Assembly (NCBI GenBank): GCA_964487175.1
Contig: CAZAQZ010000002.1
Span: 1-34,034 of the forward strand
Reading direction: 5' to 3'
DNA: 34,034 bases
DNA from: an uncultured Verrucomicrobiota bacterium
GTDB lineage: Bacteria > Verrucomicrobiota > Verrucomicrobiia > Palsa-1439
Shown here: positions 1-20,893 of the stretch, one piece after another
Position numbering within the stretch: the stretch's first letter is position 1
Layout of the letters: the number at the start of each line of letters is the position of its first letter
Notes under the pieces: generated by a model
What the model was told of the DNA's origin: nothing
Database searches by the model: none
Seen by the model: the letters and a program-made list of their open reading frames with translations, nothing else
Position numbers and translations under genes: made by a program

Positions 1-1728
1 GGACACTTCTTCCCGGCTGAATATCTTTCCCTGTCGAAGCGCCTGAATCTGACCCGACAATCCAAGCGAACTAGGATACCGGATTCCAGTCAACCGTTCA
101 AACCGCGCAGTCGCCGCCACCACCTCCGCCTGATCGCCTTCATAGCGGATGATATAGGCGGCGTCTGCCTTCAGTAGCGATGCTGACTTGATCAGAATGC
201 GCTGTAACAACGGCTCCAATTCGAGTCGTTGCGCGCCGCCACTGCTGATTTCCACCAGCGTATTCAACTTTTCATTCTCACGCAATTGCGTCTCATAGAG
301 GCGGGCGTTGGCGATGGCTATACCCAATTGATTGCCCATGGCTGTCACCATCTCCACCACGTCCGGCGCGAATTCCAACTCCCGCTTACTGACCAGGCCC
401 AGCGTGCCCAGGACTTCGCCCTTTGCCTTCACCGGTACCACAATCAATGGCTTGAATCCATGCTTGCGCGCGGCTGTCGCCGCCATGGGGGCTTCTGAGG
501 ATAGATCGCTGAAGATTTTTGCCTGACCGGACGCTGCCACCACTCCAGTAACTCCCTCACCCCAGGCAACCAACCGCAACTGATCCACAAGCTCTTCCGG
601 CAACCCGGTGTGCACGTACAGCCGCAGGTGCTTTTGATCCAGCTCCGCCAGATGAATCCCGCCTCCCTCCATGCCCGTGCTTTCCAGAGCAACCTCCAGC
701 GTGTTGCGAGCTATCTCTTCGATCTTCAGGGACGAATTTGCAACCGCTGCAAGAGTGGTCAGTGCAGCGAGCTGCCGGTTCCGCCGCAGCAATTGTTGCT
801 GGCGCTGACGCATTTGGGTCACCTCGCGCACGACGAATTGAAACTCTTCGGGTTTGTCACCGTCGCGGGAGAAAATACTCGCGTTGCACTGCAAATCAAT
901 CCATTGGCCGTCCTTGCGGCAAAACCGGTATTCCAAGCTGTGCACGGATTCACCTAGCACCAGCTTGGCAAAAGCATTGCGGACCGCCTCGATATCGTCC
1001 GGATGAACCCTGTCAAACGGGTCGATCGCCGCTAACTCCTCCGTCCCGTACCCAAAAATCCGCGGAAACGCCGGGTTGGAGAATCGCGGACGGCCATCTA
1101 AACCAGCTATGTAGATCGCGTCGTCCGAGTTCTCCACCAGGCTGCGATACTGCTCTTCGCTCGCCCGCAGGTCCGCTTCCAATTGGGCGTGGACCATGGC
1201 ATTGCCGATCTGATTGGCGATGACCTCAATGAGATCGATGTCCTCGCCCTCGAACTCCCGCACCTTGTACGTTCCCAGTGCGAGCAAACCGACGACGAAC
1301 CCTTGTGCGCGAATGGGACACATGATGGCGGATCGGAATCCTGCCCGTACCACATCGACGCGAAACATGTGAGGCGTCAGAGTGAAATCCTCGATGACCT
1401 TGGTATTGCCCTCCAGGACCGCATTGATGGTCACGTCGTCGCTCTTGCGAAGCGTGGTGACCTGACGCGCAAACGCCTCGGAGACTCCGCGCCAGGCGAA
1501 CAAACGGAGCACCTGATCGCTGTCCTGCCACATATAGACTGCTCCGGCGTCGATTTGTGTCACCGCCAGGATGGCGTGCAAGGCATTGTCAGCTATTTCC
1601 TTCAGATCGAGGGTGCGGTTGACCGCATCAGCGATGAAATTGATCGCCGTAAGCCGTACTTCGCGCAAAGGCTTGGCCGTAGCTGACGTGGAGTCGAACA
1701 GTTTCATTGGCGCCCTGTGACGACTCAT
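1..1728 (-). CDS. Multi-domain GAF-PAS-GAF-GAF sensory protein, N-terminal ~570 aa only; the C-terminal output domain lies beyond the left edge
   Basis: I read the + strand in triplets from position 1 and found no tta/cta/tca (minus-strand stops) until cta at 1732..1734. In-frame ATGs lie at 1707 (MKLFDSTSATAKPLREV...) and 1728 (MSRHRAP-MKLF...). It is absent from the ORF track because it has no stop inside the window. The translation shows GAF-like segments (…LDLKEIADNALHAILAVTQIDAGAVYMW…, …GVTGVVAASGQAKIFSDL…VVPVKAKGEVLGTLGLVS…) and a clear PAS segment (EEQYRSLVENSDDAIYIAGLDGRPRFSNPAFPRIFGYGTEEL…YRFCRKDGQWIDLQCNAS). The + strand ORFs here (229..498, 610..957, 738..1223, 1183..1686) look like antisense shadows. 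Confidence 0.8.
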   Translation of the reverse strand, partial: MSRHRAPMKLFDSTSATAKPLREVRLTAINFIADAVNRTLDLKEIADNALHAILAVTQIDAGAVYMWQDSDQVLRLFAWRGVSEAFARQVTTLRKSDDVTINAVLEGNTKVIEDFTLTPHMFRVDVVRAGFRSAIMCPIRAQGFVVGLLALGTYKVREFEGEDIDLIEVIANQIGNAMVHAQLEADLRASEEQYRSLVENSDDAIYIAGLDGRPRFSNPAFPRIFGYGTEELAAIDPFDRVHPDDIEAVRNAFAKLVLGESVHSLEYRFCRKDGQWIDLQCNASIFSRDGDKPEEFQFVVREVTQMRQRQQQLLRRNRQLAALTTLAAVANSSLKIEEIARNTLEVALESTGMEGGGIHLAELDQKHLRLYVHTGLPEELVDQLRLVAWGEGVTGVVAASGQAKIFSDLSSEAPMAATAARKHGFKPLIVVPVKAKGEVLGTLGLVSKRELEFAPDVVEMVTAMGNQLGIAIANARLYETQLRENEKLNTLVEISSGGAQRLELEPLLQRILIKSASLLKADAAYIIRYEGDQAEVVAATARFERLTGIRYPSSLGLSGQIQALRQGKIFSREEVS

Positions 1729-1787
1729 ACCCTAACAGAAAAGCCGTGATTTTTCAGCAAATTTCGCCAATACTCGCTTCAGAACTT

Positions 1788-2168
1788 ATGGACAAACCAG
1801 ATAAACTTGATGATATTTTTCGCCTTCAGGAAGCCCTTAACCAGCGCATCGGGGTTAACACCTCCGGAATGACAGATGAGGAGCGCCAGAAATGGGTGCT
1901 GAACTACTGCCGTGCGATGACCCAAGAGATCGCTGAATTGACCGATAGCGTCCCGTGGAAATGGTGGGCCAAGTATCAGAAGTTCGACAAACAGAACGCG
2001 CGCGTCGAGGTGATCGATCTATTGCACTTCTTGATCTCGATTGCCCAGGTATTGGAAATGACACCCGAGGACGTTTACGAAGCCTACACCAAGAAGCACA
2101 AAGTCAATCTTGACCGCCAGGCATCCGGGTACAGTACAAAAGACGAAGACGATAGCCGCCATATCTGA
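1788..2168 (+). CDS. Dimeric (all-alpha) dUTPase-like NTP pyrophosphohydrolase, 126 aa
   Basis: This is the only + strand gene. MDKPDKLDDIFRLQEALNQRIG…QEIAELTDSVPWKWWAKYQKFDKQNARVEVIDLLHFLISIA… matches my recollection of the dimeric dUTPase / MazG-like all-alpha family (E-x-x-E…D…WKWW). The ATG at 1788 is preferred over the TTG at 1707 used by the ORF track, because the TTG would overlap the divergent sensor gene start. Family assignment is by eye only. Confidence 0.65.
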   Translation: MDKPDKLDDIFRLQEALNQRIGVNTSGMTDEERQKWVLNYCRAMTQEIAELTDSVPWKWWAKYQKFDKQNARVEVIDLLHFLISIAQVLEMTPEDVYEAYTKKHKVNLDRQASGYSTKDEDDSRHI

Positions 2169-11045: not shown

Positions 11046-11231
11046 TTACCAACTCGCTTTAGTAACGCCGGGGATCTTGCCCTGGCTTGCCAGTTCGCGG
11101 AAGCAGATGCGGCAGATCTGGAACCGGCGGACAAAACCGCGTCGCCGTCCGCAGACCTTGCAACGGTTGTACTTGCGCGACGAAAATTTCGCGGGCCGTG
11201 ACTGCTTCACCATTAAACAAAGTTTCGCCAT
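11046..11231 (-). CDS. rpsN: 30S ribosomal protein uS14, short type-Z Zn-binding form
   Basis: 61 aa. …[27 protein letters not shown]…W has two CxxC pairs. Position between rplE and rpsH. Confidence 0.97.
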
Positions 11232-14075: not shown

Positions 14076-14411
14076 TTATTGTCCGTCAGTCAGTATGATC
14101 TGAATGTGGCTAGTGCGCTTGATAATCGGCCCTGCACTGCCACGCGCCTTCGGTTGAAAGCGTTTCAGGCGCGGCCCTTCATTGGCCACCGCCTCCTTCA
14201 CGCGTAACGAGTCCGCAGCCAGCTTCGCATTGTTTGTCGCATTGGCGATTGCTGACTTCAGCGTCTTCTCCACCATACGCGCCGACTTGCGCGGAACAAA
14301 CCGCAGCACCTCAAGAGCCCGCGACGCGCTCAGACCCTGAATCATACGCGTCACTTCCCCGACTTTCGAGGGACTCATCCGTGAATATTTCGTTATCGCT
14401 TTAACGTCCAT
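14076..14411 (-). CDS. rplV: 50S ribosomal protein uL22
   Basis: I call the ATG at 14411 (MDVKAITKYSRMSPSKVGEVTRMIQGLSASRALEVLRF…, 111 aa) as the start. The ORF-track version (to 14534) adds 41 Trp/Arg/Cys-rich residues from a TTG that overlaps the upstream ORF in another frame. Confidence 0.95.
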   Translation of the reverse strand: MDVKAITKYSRMSPSKVGEVTRMIQGLSASRALEVLRFVPRKSARMVEKTLKSAIANATNNAKLAADSLRVKEAVANEGPRLKRFQPKARGSAGPIIKRTSHIQIILTDGQ

Positions 14412-14418
14412 AAATCGT

Positions 14419-15177
14419 TCAGCTTTTCGTCGCTCGCGCCACGTCTCCGGCCGCCGGCAAGAGATCCTTCTCCATTCTCTCCACCAGCCCTCCCGAGATC
14501 CGTCGGCGCACTTCAACAACTCGTAATTCCGCAATCACCTTCCCGCCGCGCACTACCGCAAACGGCATCCCAATCCGCACCCCCTGCAGTTCTCCCACAT
14601 CGAGCACTACCAGTTGCAGACGTGCATCAAAGTCCACCACTCTGGCTGATTGCAACGTCGATGTCGAGGGTTTTGTCCCCGCTGCCTGAGCCTGTTTTCC
14701 AGCCTCCATCGCAGCAAGTAAACCCTTGGTTCGATTCACCTCAACGGCTACATCGTGATTCGATTCCACCGCCGTCAGCAGCGCCTTCAACCGATCCACC
14801 ATGCGCAGTTGCTCGGCTTGTTCAAGGTACAGCGCGCGAACGCCTTCAAGCAATTGCCTCTGCCTCGCTCCGGAGTCGATGTCTGAAGGGTTCGCCCCCA
14901 GCGTTTGTGCCCGAAGCTGCGCCTCTGTCCAGCGTTGTCGAAACAGGTCGCTTTCAGTTCGCGCGATCGCCAGATTCTCCTGCAAGGTCCGGATCAGCGC
15001 ATCACGTTGCTCCAGTTGCCGCTTAAGATCCGCAACATTCACCCGCAGTTTTTCCACAGCTAATCGCAACTCATCAAGTTGCGTCTGCTGTGGATCATCT
15101 GCGTGCAGCAGCGAAACCAGTCCAAAGAACAATACAGCCAACAACCAAATTCCTGCTCGTGCTCGCCGTGCTGGCAC
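14419..15177 (-). CDS. Hypothetical exported coiled-coil protein (signal peptide, ~150-aa coiled coil, ~70-aa beta-rich C-terminal module) inserted between rpsS and rplV
   Basis: 252 codons open on the same strand as the operon. The GTG start (cac at 15175..15177) has GGAG (ctcc at 15184..15187) 6 nt upstream and lies 18 nt after the rpsS TAA. The TGA at 14419..14421 is 7 nt before the rplV ATG. The N-terminus RRARAG-IWLLAVLFFGLVSLL-HA/DD looks like a Sec signal or signal anchor. A heptad-like Q/R/E/L-rich stretch follows (LDELRLAVEKLRVNVADLKRQLEQRDALIRTLQENL…). The C-terminus is ARVVDFDARLQLVVLDVGELQGVRIGMPFAVVRGGKVIAELRVVEVRRRISGG. Codon style resembles the neighbours. I recognised no family. 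Confidence 0.8.
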   Translation of the reverse strand: MPARRARAGIWLLAVLFFGLVSLLHADDPQQTQLDELRLAVEKLRVNVADLKRQLEQRDALIRTLQENLAIARTESDLFRQRWTEAQLRAQTLGANPSDIDSGARQRQLLEGVRALYLEQAEQLRMVDRLKALLTAVESNHDVAVEVNRTKGLLAAMEAGKQAQAAGTKPSTSTLQSARVVDFDARLQLVVLDVGELQGVRIGMPFAVVRGGKVIAELRVVEVRRRISGGLVERMEKDLLPAAGDVARATKS

Positions 15178-15195
15178 GGTGTGCTCCGAACGCCT

Positions 15196-15471
15196 TTACT
15201 TCGCAGCCGCCTTCTCCGTATGGGCCCCGTGCGCCCTAAACGTGCGCGTCGGCGAAAACTCACCCAAACGATGTCCCACCATGTTCTCCGTTACGAACAC
15301 CGGTGTATGCTGTTTGCCGTTATGCACCAAAAACGTGTGTCCGACAAATTCAGGAATAATCATGGACCGTCGTGACCACGTCTTGATCGGCCTTTTCTCT
15401 GCCGGCATCTTCTGCACCTTGACGAACAAATGCTCGTCAACAAATGGACCCTTTTTCAGCGAACGTCCCAT
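15196..15471 (-). CDS. rpsS: 30S ribosomal protein uS19
   Basis: 91 aa. [16 protein letters not shown]…[27 protein letters not shown]…GHRLGEF is canonical S19. Confidence 0.98.

Positions 15472-18186: not shown

Positions 18187-18190
<4 letters not shown>
17882..18190 (-). CDS. rpsJ: 30S ribosomal protein uS10
   Basis: 102 aa. [44 protein letters not shown]…[24 protein letters not shown] is canonical S10. The ATG overlaps the fusA TGA (ATGA). Confidence 0.98.
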
Positions 18191-20349
<2,159 letters not shown>

Positions 20350-20422
20350 GTTCCGTTCTTAAACTTTAAGTTGTGACGAAAGATATCCCGTTTGCTGTTT
20401 TCTTCGTGATTGCACGCCAGAA

Positions 20423-20893
20423 CTACCAGCGATAGTGGGCAAACGCGCGATTGGCTTGCGCCATTTTGTGCATATCCTCGCGCTTCTTCACCGCCGCCCC
20501 CGTATTGTTCGACGCATCCACGATCTCGGAGGCCAGAGCCTGCATCATGGCCGTTCCCTTGCGAGCTTTGGCGTAGTCGATCATCCACCGTAGCGCCAAC
20601 GCCTCCTGTCTGTCTGAGGACACCTCGATAGGTACTTGGTAATTGGCGCCACCTACGCGGCGTGACTTCACTTCCAATCGCGGCTTCACGTTTTCCATTG
20701 CCGCCTGCAATACTTCAAGCGGGTTCTTGTCCTTCAGTTTCTCGCTGATGAGATCAAAAGCACCATAAACGACGCCCTCGGCAACAGATTACTTGCCGTC
20801 GCGCATTACTGTATTGACCATCCGCGTGACCAGCGCGCTGTTATATCGCGGATCGGTCGCACGAACTCGTTTCTCTGATCGTCGTCTTCGCAT
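20423..20893 (-). pseudogene. rpsG: 30S ribosomal protein uS7 reading frame interrupted by an in-frame TAA at codon 35 (20789..20791)
   Basis: Hand translation from the ATG at 20893 gives [115 protein letters not shown]…[23 protein letters not shown]. Both halves are in the same frame (20893-20710=183, 20893-20791=102). The stop replaces the second Lys of the conserved DGKKS motif. The ORF track shows only the 95-aa distal fragment (20423..20710). This could be a sequencing error rather than a true pseudogene. Confidence 0.85.

Follow-up and report, generated by a model that had tools for sequence, protein, structure and literature searches.

The gene order of the S10 operon is among the most conserved in bacteria, and its rpsS-rplV junction is normally uninterrupted. 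The ribosomal superoperon carries nonribosomal passengers, namely, secY, adk, map, and infA in the spc and alpha segments and secE and nusG upstream of rplK. We examined a window (the whole stretch of DNA analyzed, 34,034 nucleotides from an uncultured Verrucomicrobiota bacterium) in which secY, adk, map, nusG, and other usual passenger genes are in their expected places and the rpsS-rplV junction holds a 252-codon open reading frame (ORF). Like adk and map, this ORF appears to be a nonribosomal gene within a ribosomal operon, with codon adaptation at the low end, and it shares with secY and secE a connection to the cell envelope or to export. Unlike these passengers, it sits inside the S10 block, occurs in one phylum-level lineage, and is predicted to encode an exported protein rather than a universal housekeeping enzyme.

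At the protein level, the C-terminal 75 residues of the ORF product are modeled as the same small β-barrel as the FlgT_C domain and the CI/CII domains of TsaP. FlgT, of the Vibrio flagellar H-ring, and TsaP, which is associated with the type IV pilus secretin, are Sec-exported periplasmic proteins in which this domain builds ring-like assemblies; the FlgT-like domains of TsaP are described in bioRxiv 10.1101/2020.05.29.123786. The same six-stranded topology is found in the crown barrels of F1/V1-ATPase alpha and beta subunits and of FliI/EscN, where the barrel mediates lateral ring contacts. Unlike FlgT and TsaP, the ORF product has a long coiled coil ahead of its barrel.

RESULTS

A 252-codon ORF separates rpsS from rplV

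The junction has the following features, each given with the basis on which it was assigned.

15196..15471, minus strand: rpsS (ribosomal protein S19), 91 amino acids, stop codon TAA (ORF list and translation).
15178..15195, minus strand: 18-nt spacer between rpsS and the ORF, AGGCGTTCGGAGCACACC (direct sequence reading).
14419..15177, minus strand: 252-codon ORF, GTG start, TGA stop at 14419..14421 (homologs, alignment, and dN/dS).
15100..15177, minus strand: codons 1 to 26 of the ORF, predicted Sec signal peptide with n-region RRAR, h-region IWLLAVLFFGLVSLL, and c-region L-H-A before DD (heuristic).
14683..15093, minus strand: codons 29 to 165, predicted three-helix coiled-coil region (AlphaFold2, heptads, and alignment).
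14647..14682, minus strand: codons 166 to 177, low-complexity linker (pLDDT and alignments).
14431..14646, minus strand: codons 178 to 249, predicted six-stranded β-barrel of the FlgT-C/F1-crown/MreC fold type (model and Foldseek).
14412..14418, minus strand: 7-nt spacer between the ORF and rplV, ACGATTT (direct sequence reading).
14076..14411, minus strand: rplV (ribosomal protein L22), 111 amino acids, ATG at 14409..14411 (ORF list and tblastn of relatives).

A Shine-Dalgarno-like GGAG at 15184..15187 lies 6 nt ahead of the GTG start at 15175..15177. The coordinates, the GGAG-N6-GTG start, and the 18-nt and 7-nt spacers reported in the initial annotation all hold, on the minus strand. The syntenic upstream gene in relatives matches Pfam Ribosomal_S19. 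The GC content and GC3 of the ORF are like those of the neighboring genes, which speaks against foreign DNA, and an Rfam scan of the whole window returned tRNA-Trp only, with no RNA element in the spacer.

The ORF is a conserved gene of a large, unnamed family

The ORF product has 165 close homologs at 44 to 70% identity, and an exhaustive hidden Markov model (HMM) search returned 1653 representative clusters (50% identity level) at an E value of ≤1e-3, 479 of them at ≤1e-10. The matches are uncultured metagenome-assembled genomes or metagenome contigs labeled Verrucomicrobia, Verrucomicrobiae, or Verrucomicrobiia bacterium. In the close alignment, 17 columns are invariant and about 50 near-invariant, dN/dS for the closest pairs is 0.17 to 0.34, indicating purifying selection, and the third codon position is about twice as variable as the second (entropy, 1.28 versus 0.64 bits). 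Family length is 240 to 280 amino acids throughout, and frame, length, and motifs are kept down to about 25% identity. Lack of frame conservation among relatives had been named in advance as a ground for rejecting the ORF; it was looked for, and the frame is kept across homologs. The ORF is a real gene under purifying selection and a member of a large unnamed Verrucomicrobiota family.

The initial annotation could not assign a family by eye, and curated profile collections do not claim this one: no Pfam or NCBIfam model scored above threshold for the window protein or 50 family members, which gave coiled-coil noise and subthreshold MreC matches. A sequence search of the PDB with the full-length profile yielded nothing meaningful. 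The proposal that the product is nonribosomal stands, as it resembles no ribosomal or ribosome assembly family and evolves faster than its neighbors, being 44 to 65% identical across loci at which S19 is 78 to 94% and L22 71 to 95% identical by tblastn. Phage or defense cargo was ruled out because PHROGs and PADLOC gave coiled-coil noise only. Long frames overlapping rpsS in some metagenome loci resemble S19 fusions and are out-of-frame stop-to-stop read-through; on translation, the true ORF starts in these loci come after the rpsS stop. In the literature, we found no description of the gene or of an insert at the rpsS-rplV junction. An identity with the published "PVC signature protein" was considered and rejected, as that protein is described as small and different, with nothing at the S19/L22 junction mentioned.

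The rpsS-ORF-rplV order is fixed across related genomes

The order is rpsS-ORF-rplV at every one of the 38 close loci, 34 of which come from GTDB species-representative genomes, and distant members, at about 25 to 35% identity, occupy the same slot. A hand-made DNA motif pattern collected a further set of 120 metagenome loci; 116 carry the family ORF, and the order is unbroken wherever the flanking sequence suffices to judge it. At the approximately 155 related loci taken together, rplV is directly downstream of the family gene wherever the flanks are readable. rpsS is directly upstream with a single exception: in one genome the operon is split, and the family gene, which stays with rplV, has glycoside hydrolase genes on its other flank.

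The ORF had been described as inserted between rpsS and rplV. It does separate the two genes, and with the slot occupied in all of the approximately 155 loci, down to about 25 to 30% protein identity, the insertion is neither local nor recent but ancient, and it is fixed in much of Verrucomicrobiota. Because a conserved gene lies between those for S19 and L22 in every relative examined, an envelope protein appears to be a permanent part of an operon that is among the most invariant in bacteria.

Transcription and translation signals

No promoter or terminator was detected on the minus strand in either spacer, and at 18 and 7 nt, there is no room for one. Shared strand, short gaps, and an order conserved across lineages are the features expected of an S10 operon transcription unit, and they agree with the earlier view that the ORF is embedded in that operon. 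Gaps among all 19 operon genes range from −4 to 25 nt. In the wider family, the median gap is 16 nt to rpsS and about 21 nt to rplV; in close loci, the gap to rplV is 8 to 21 nt except at L002 (−10 nt) and L036 (129 nt), the latter carrying a truncated ORF.

Translation of rplV had been proposed to be coupled to termination of the ORF. This proposal drew on the absence of a Shine-Dalgarno sequence before rplV. An A/T-rich ATTT(T) ahead of the rplV ATG is conserved in the close clade. As a distinctive sign of coupling the argument fails, because most genes of the operon have no recognizable Shine-Dalgarno sequence. It is the ORF, with its GGAG and GTG start, that is the odd one out in the operon. 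This arrangement (GGGAG plus GTG) is kept, with few exceptions, at the 38 close loci and is not conserved in the wider family, where 75 of 88 loci start with ATG and 9 of 88 have Shine-Dalgarno-like motifs. The codon adaptation index of the ORF is 0.626, similar to those of adk and map, versus 0.65 to 0.77 for most ribosomal proteins.

The N terminus resembles a cleavable Sec signal peptide

The initial annotation proposed a signal peptide or anchor. The sequence elements behind that proposal are present in the window protein: RRAR, an uncharged h-region of 15 to 17 residues, and L-H-A before DD. To judge the N terminus across the family, a home-made n/h/c heuristic was applied to 108 members, the hallmarks of a Sec/signal peptidase I (SPase I) substrate being a basic n-region, an h-region of 7 to 15 residues, small residues at −3 and −1, and the absence of a lipobox. 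K or R occurs in the n-region of 98 of the 108 members, the median h-region is 15 residues, a (−3, −1) site is present in all 108, and a lipobox is found in 2; by this heuristic, the family has the tripartite pattern of a Sec/SPase I signal peptide.

In distant members, the signal peptide is short and classical, with AXA at its end and a conserved [RS]SL[ST]D motif after it, and the wider family shows no conservation of the h-region sequence. In the clade of the window protein this sequence is well conserved, with an invariant Phe-Phe, which is unusual for a cleaved signal peptide, so that the helix could be retained as a membrane anchor. The AXA signal peptides of the wider family favor cleavage to a periplasmic protein rather than retention of a membrane anchor. 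The signal peptide half of the earlier proposal is thus the better supported, and the anchor half is less favored.

A coiled coil and a variable linker are predicted to precede a single β-barrel

AlphaFold2 predicts helices at residues 29 to 92, 100 to 138, and 143 to 165, and in helix 1, hydrophobic residues occupy 78% of heptad a/d positions versus 22% elsewhere, in agreement with the long heptad-like helix noticed at first reading. The heptad coiled-coil region spans about 135 residues. With a pTM of 0.35, the full-length model does not reliably place the helices relative to one another. Conserved motifs of this region in the close alignment are LAIARTESxLFxxxW, QLRAQTLG, and QRQLxExxRxLY, and the distant alignment has a counterpart, SLAxAxxEAExFRR...LExRLLxAV. 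The low-complexity linker that had been noted is there: residues 162 to 172 are disordered (pLDDT of <50), and linker length is variable and conservation poor in both the close and distant alignments.

The β-rich C-terminal module of about 70 residues, also recognized in the initial annotation, is confidently predicted as a single β-barrel at residues 178 to 249 (pLDDT of 97 and pTM of 0.87 when modeled alone). In a Foldseek search with the full-length model, the best 50 matches were saturated by ATP synthase chains; when the barrel was remodeled by itself, FlgT and MreC emerged. The two top PDB matches of the barrel are FlgT, 8z5n_0 (E value of 5.6e-4; TMq of 0.70) and 3w1e (E value of 1.8e-3; TMq of 0.72), and by Foldseek, the domain model has the fold of FlgT_C (PF16538). 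At the sequence level, Pfam FlgT_C gave subthreshold matches (E value of ≤1) in 22 of 40 barrels, the best at 1.2e-4, with none for the barrel of the window protein itself; a precomputed PF16538 match exists for three family proteins (P0134, P0318, and P0323), and the family profile matches the FlgT-like domain of TsaP at an E value of 2.8e-4. FlgT_C HMM scores of most family members are below family level, and unlike FlgT and TsaP, the family has no FlgT N or M domain and no LysM domain by Pfam or NCBIfam and no flagellar or pilus genes nearby. Most matches in a protein search with only the barrel were fragmentary gene calls; one match, on a 3.2-Mb contig, lies in a frameshift-ridden assembly.

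Nearly all crown barrels of F1, V1, and FliI that were matched superpose at a TMq of about 0.64 to 0.71 and a root mean square deviation of 2.4 to 3.7 Å over 71 to 81 columns, with F1 alpha N-terminal barrels at a TMq of about 0.68. These crown-barrel proteins are cytoplasmic ATPases, whereas the ORF product has no nucleotide-binding domain, is 8 to 21% identical to them, and has a predicted export signal. A likeness to membrane fusion proteins (HlyD/MexC) was rejected as a short generic hairpin motif (domain E value of 0.029) in a misfitting domain order. A fold can thus be assigned to the module on the basis of the model, as FlgT-C-like and of the barrel type also found in the F1-ATPase crown and MreC. 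Being generic and present also in cytoplasmic ATPases, this fold cannot specify a partner.

Other identities for the product

Could the product be a divergent, shortened MreC, the membrane-anchored elongasome component that positions or activates PBP2 and RodA, relocated from mreBCD to the S10 operon? The two share the order of an N-terminal hydrophobic helix, a coiled coil, and a periplasmic β-barrel, and members repeatedly show a weak resemblance, in sequence and in fold, to the first MreC barrel. NCBIfam MreC models match 23 of 50 members below threshold (best E value, 3.4e-6), as well as several distant members; Pfam MreC matches 6 of 40 isolated barrels (best E value, 4.7e-4); Foldseek retrieves 6zm0, 6zlv, and 7eft at 24 to 27% identity over 58 to 61 columns and 2j5u at 16% over 68 columns; and a few members carry the JGI label "MreC." Yet the scores, where shown, are about 12 to 17 bits against cutoffs of 92.75 (TIGR00219) to 380, the best MreC model for the window protein reaches an E value of 0.085 and 11.9 bits against a cutoff of 243, and Pfam MreC has no match on the full-length proteins of 50 members. 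MreC has two barrels, and the ORF product has a single one of about 75 residues with nothing after it; FlgT_C matches 22 of the 40 barrels, compared with 6 for MreC; and FlgT and F1 barrels superpose better, at a TMq of 0.68 to 0.72 versus 0.49 to 0.54 for 2j5u, 6zm0, 6zlv, and 7eft. The N terminus, with its median 15-residue h-region, looks more like a cleavable signal peptide than a transmembrane anchor, the invariant Phe-Phe of the close clade notwithstanding, and mreB or mreD adjoins none of the approximately 155 loci. Unlike MreC, the family has three helices bearing family-specific motifs and is always within the S10 operon. By threshold, by number of barrels, and by mreB/mreD association, the family does not qualify as MreC (PF04085/TIGR00219/PRK13922), and we consider a relocated MreC unlikely.

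Less likely again is a bitopic inner membrane coiled-coil protein of the FtsB/DivIC/slr1601 type, held by an uncleaved signal anchor and acting in division or membrane organization. The invariant Phe-Phe and well-conserved h-region of the close clade would suit such a protein, as would a weak NCBIfam match of residues 11 to 57 to slr1601_fam, a putative cell division protein (E value of 0.0013), and Pfam DivIC matches in 5 of 50 members (best E value, 0.012). These slr1601 and DivIC matches span only the transmembrane helix and generic coiled coil, far below cutoffs, and both the classical AXA signal peptides of the wider family, with their unconserved h-region sequence, and a median h-region that is short for a membrane span speak against an anchor.

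A cytoplasmic ribosome-associated or ribosome assembly factor would explain the strict, ancient linkage to rplV, kept even where the S10 operon is broken, and could use a barrel that also occurs in the cytoplasmic F1, V1, and FliI crowns. We regard this as very improbable. All 108 members analyzed have a basic n-region, a hydrophobic h-region, or both, which by the positive-inside rule places the rest of the chain outside the cytoplasm. The lower identity of the ORF than of S19 and L22 at the same loci and its lack of similarity to any ribosomal or assembly family also argue against such a factor.

Finally, that the ORF is no gene, being a chance frame in an expanded regulatory spacer or a mobile element remnant, draws on the absence of a curated family match and nothing more and is already refuted by the conservation and selection data, with the well-modeled barrel, the lack of an Rfam family in the region, and the neighbor-like base composition pointing the same way.

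DISCUSSION

The reading that we favor, and consider reasonably probable, is that the ORF is a functional gene for an uncharacterized exported protein and has a fixed place in the S10 operon across much of Verrucomicrobiota, transcribed with the S10 polycistron, trimmed in translation, exported by Sec, and acting as a periplasmic oligomeric scaffold. Transcription within the polycistron would make the mRNA level of the ORF follow ribosomal protein synthesis. Yield would then be trimmed in translation, in the clade of the window protein by the conserved GTG with its own GGAG and by codon adaptation below that of the neighbors, and in other clades by an ATG 3 to 6 nt past the rpsS stop without a Shine-Dalgarno sequence. 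Sec would export the precursor, and cleavage after L-H-A (residue 26) would leave a mature periplasmic product of about 25 kDa with a pI of 9, which would oligomerize through its coiled coil. The C-terminal barrel may dock on an envelope partner or assemble laterally with it, a proposal made because barrels of this type build rings or lateral contacts in FlgT, TsaP, the F1 crown, and MreC.

Together, these steps suggest that the product is most likely an abundant structural or scaffolding component of the envelope, a periplasmic oligomeric scaffold whose supply is tied to growth rate and which could serve wall synthesis, outer membrane tethering, or a trans-envelope machine. The evidence is consistent with the growth-rate-coupled envelope or division factor suggested in the initial annotation. 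As all neighbors are ribosomal genes, the genomic context gives no clue to the process served.

A bolder version of the scaffold reading is possible but doubtful: the product would be a hitherto undescribed, lineage-defining envelope scaffold of Verrucomicrobiota, its synthesis locked by selection to ribosome production, and the position upstream of rplV would itself be functional, setting stoichiometry to ribosomes, because it is kept even where the S10 operon is broken. If this were true, translational capacity and envelope growth would be genetically hard-wired to each other, and the protein would fill a role that Lpp, MreC, and similar abundant tethers or scaffolds play elsewhere.

A nonribosomal, putatively exported protein fixed between rpsS and rplV in a major, mostly uncultured phylum-level lineage is unexpected. 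A family of more than 1600 representative clusters that has no curated name gains a domain architecture and a likely compartment, and the rpsS-ORF-rplV junction could serve as a simple synteny marker for the lineage in metagenomes. The family also provides a concrete, testable case in which the dosage of an envelope component may be coupled to ribosome synthesis. The organization of the verrucomicrobial envelope has long been debated; should the protein prove abundant, as membership in this operon suggests, it may represent a major unrecognized structural element of that envelope.

Conservation of a gene between rpsS and rplV

The supercluster tuf / tRNA-Trp / nusG / rpoBC / rpsL-rpsG-fusA / S10 / spc / alpha lies whole on the minus strand of the window, and its rpsS-rplV junction is occupied as follows:

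15196..15471, minus strand, rpsS, upstream neighbor of the ORF
14419..15177, minus strand, the ORF, a single open frame filling the rpsS-rplV gap
14076..14411, minus strand, rplV, downstream neighbor of the ORF

The spacer between the rpsS stop and the GTG of the ORF reads AGGCGTTCGGAGCACACC, and that between its TGA and the rplV ATG reads ACGATTT (14412..14418). Rereading the sequence confirmed all of the coordinates and signals that the initial annotation had assigned to this junction.

That the ORF is a genuine gene, as had been proposed, is borne out by its conservation in relatives. A word-indexed search returned 165 homologs of the window protein at 44 to 70% identity, which are unnamed or "hypothetical" apart from a few labeled MreC by JGI. 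When 1.8 billion cluster representatives were searched exhaustively with a profile, the family grew to 1653 clusters at E ≤ 1e-3 (479 at E ≤ 1e-10), mostly full-length proteins of 240 to 300 aa. In an alignment of 50 sequences, 17 columns are invariant and about 50 near-invariant, distributed over both the helical part and the C-terminal module. When 32 loci were aligned by codon, dN/dS was 0.17 to 0.34 for the closest pairs, and entropy was twice as high at third codon positions as at second positions. The base composition of the ORF is the same as that of neighboring genes, and its codon adaptation (0.626) lies at the low end, comparable to adk and map.

The junction itself is equally stable. 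In 34 of 34 GTDB species-representative genomes found, rpsS lies directly upstream and rplV directly downstream of the family gene, and the first four metagenome loci examined have the same order. Distant members, with ∼25 to 35% identity to the window protein, occupy the identical slot. Scanning metagenomes with the back-translated distant-branch motif GMPF-N13-VVDVR yielded 120 loci, 116 of which encode a family member; among those with enough flank there were no exceptions to the order. Here rplV was absent only where ≤175 nt of contig remained downstream, and rpsS only where ≤42 nt remained upstream. Because S19 and L22 at these loci are 62 to 83% and 47 to 70% identical to those of the window, respectively, the arrangement spans deep branches. 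Every labeled match is assigned to Verrucomicrobia/-iae/-iia. The family gene is thus conserved, under selection, and fixed in its operon position.

One genome, GCA_031411295.1 (JANOAV010000001.1, 3171..4830), has a split S10 operon in which an intact family gene heads rplV-rpsC-rplP-rpmC-rpsQ. Upstream lie GH114 and GH76 glycoside-hydrolase genes and then a 330-nt spacer, and L22 is 171 aa long. Since linkage to rplV is kept after that to rpsS is lost, the tighter linkage is with rplV.

Three further cases are irregular. In CAWEWF010000014.1 (3001..3760) the family ORF is shortened to 212 aa with a 129-nt gap to rplV, the sole truncation among the 38 loci closest to the window (L001 to L038); it may be a pseudogene or result from a sequencing error or frameshift. 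The MAG DATKNW01 (SMAG_U14747) holds two differing rpsS-ORF-rplV loci (L010 and L033; ORFs with 53% and 47% identity to that of the window), which suggests a mixed bin rather than duplication. On a 3.2-Mb contig (ERZ25039485 contig_5803), S10 operon genes are split into many short gene calls, two of them pieces of the family gene of 50 to 51 aa, a fragmentation typical of uncorrected long-read frameshifts.

Expression signals

No promoter-like or terminator-like site was found on the coding strand in either spacer flanking the ORF, and neither spacer matched Rfam; the ORF would therefore be cotranscribed with the S10 operon genes. The initial annotation had also proposed that rplV translation is coupled to the ORF. 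The 7-nt gap lacking a Shine-Dalgarno sequence stands, but not by itself as a sign of special dependence: across the 19 genes of the operon, a recognizable Shine-Dalgarno sequence is missing from most, and intergenic gaps run from -4 to 25 nt, so such a gap before rplV is ordinary.

The ORF has the sole GTG start in the operon and is one of few genes there with a clear GGAG. GTG with GGGAG ∼7 nt upstream is conserved in virtually all 38 close loci, and the A/T-rich ATTT(T) abutting the rplV ATG (window 14412..14418) in almost all of them, the remainder of that spacer being variable. In the wider family the start is ATG at 75 of 88 loci, an SD-like motif occurs at 9 of 88, and the gap from the rpsS stop is often 3 to 6 nt. 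Each lineage thus seems to set the translational yield of the gene in its own way.

Architecture of the family protein

AlphaFold2 with the family alignment predicted helices at residues 29 to 92, 100 to 138, and 143 to 165, with a disordered linker joining the helical part to a barrel (178 to 249; whole model, mean pLDDT, 79; pTM, 0.35). Modeled by itself, the barrel reached a pLDDT of 97 and a pTM of 0.87.

Foldseek matches of the barrel model in the PDB (E value; TMq)
FlgT, Vibrio LPHT ring (8z5n_0): 5.6e-4; 0.70
FlgT, crystal structure (3w1e): 1.8e-3; 0.72
F1/V1 ATPase N-terminal crown barrels: 2.7e-3 to 2.1e-2; about 0.64 to 0.71
MreC (2j5u, 6zm0, 6zlv, 7eft): 5.4e-3 to 2.0e-2; 0.49 to 0.54

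Against Pfam, 22 of 40 isolated barrels matched FlgT_C and 6 of 40 MreC, none at family level, and among PDB entries a barrel profile matched TsaP at its FlgT-like domain. The C-terminal beta module noted initially is therefore modeled as an FlgT-C-like barrel. FlgT-type domains form periplasmic rings around the secretin (TsaP) or the flagellar basal body (FlgT) (bioRxiv 10.1101/2020.05.29.123786). It is unlikely that the family protein is a shortened MreC, which fails on thresholds, barrel number, predicted anchor type, and genomic context.

The heptad pattern is clean in helix 1. Motifs are conserved near the helix 1/helix 2 turn (LAIARTESxLF...QLRAQTLG, then QRQLxE), with the distant-branch counterpart SLAxAxxEAExFRR...ALG...LExRLLxAV. 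This conservation points to a helical region that would make specific contacts rather than serve as a mere spacer.

The N termini of 108 family members were analyzed by a heuristic for n-, h-, and c-regions. The uncharged h-region has a median of 15 residues and is closed by a small-residue (-3,-1) site in all 108; 98 carry K/R in the n-region and 2 a lipobox. Distant members have textbook signal peptides (...LQAQ/SNRSLTD, ...AAVAQ/Q), and [RS]-S-[LF]-[ST]-D is conserved at the predicted mature N terminus of that branch (L044 to L163, alignment A2), as in QGDRSLTDSE and GGSSFSDSDIE. In the window protein, cleavage would follow L-H-A26 and leave a mature chain of 226 residues with a pI of 9 and no cysteine. 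One caveat to this predicted signal peptide is that Phe17-Phe18 in the h-region (codons 17 to 20, window 15118..15129) is invariant in 50 of 50 aligned close homologs, and Leu16 nearly so; h-regions are normally constrained in hydrophobicity alone. This Phe-Phe pair and weak slr1601/DivIC matches are the two points in favor of an uncleaved bitopic division-type protein, which we regard as slightly less probable than a shortened MreC. A cytoplasmic ribosome-associated factor is very improbable, being contradicted by the predicted N-terminal export signal, and the ORF as a non-gene, refuted, has next to no probability left.

Other features of the window

In rpsG (S7; minus strand, about 20420..20893) an in-frame TAA stands at 20789..20791 (...RDGK*SVAEG...). 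Five near-identical contigs (96.5% nucleotide identity for L165, the one compared) have GGCAAAAAATCT (G-K-K-S) in place of the GGCAAGTAATCT of the window. The TAA most likely stems from a mistake in sequencing or assembling an A6 run rather than from recoding or a pseudogene. The rpsN gene (11046..11231, minus strand) encodes a short, 61-aa S14 with two CxxC pairs, the zinc-ribbon type. EF-G (18187..20349, minus strand; 720 aa) has a Q/P/K-rich N-terminal extension of ∼20 residues before the G domain, and the EF-G proteins of relatives are of similar length (711 to 734 aa). At the contig end beyond rplQ, overlapping plus-strand ORFs (738..1223 and 1183..1686), neither with a Pfam match, lie with a dUTPase_2-family gene (1707..2168) just downstream.

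Proposed role

As judged from sequence and models, the family product joins a coiled coil and an FlgT-C-like barrel to an N-terminal export signal. It would be translated from the S10 polycistron and exported by Sec; the coiled coil would drive oligomerization, and the barrel would dock on, or polymerize with, an envelope partner. Its mode of action may resemble that of MreC, a periplasmic coiled-coil-plus-barrel scaffold, or of the ring builders FlgT and TsaP. In genomic setting it is like secY, adk, map, infA, and secE, nonribosomal passengers of ribosomal operons. Tests of membership placed it outside all of these families. In the literature covered, which is incomplete but includes PVC-signature papers, we found neither this gene nor any interruption of the rpsS-rplV junction described, and an earlier mention is possible.

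We favor as reasonably probable an S10-made, Sec-exported, coiled-coil-oligomeric structural or scaffolding component of the envelope; the final step is the least certain part of this proposal. Placement in the S10 operon would keep its supply proportional to ribosome synthesis, which would suit an abundant component of this kind. What surprises here, rather than any demonstrated new mechanism, is how strict and deep the synteny is within a near-universal operon and how large the unnamed family is.
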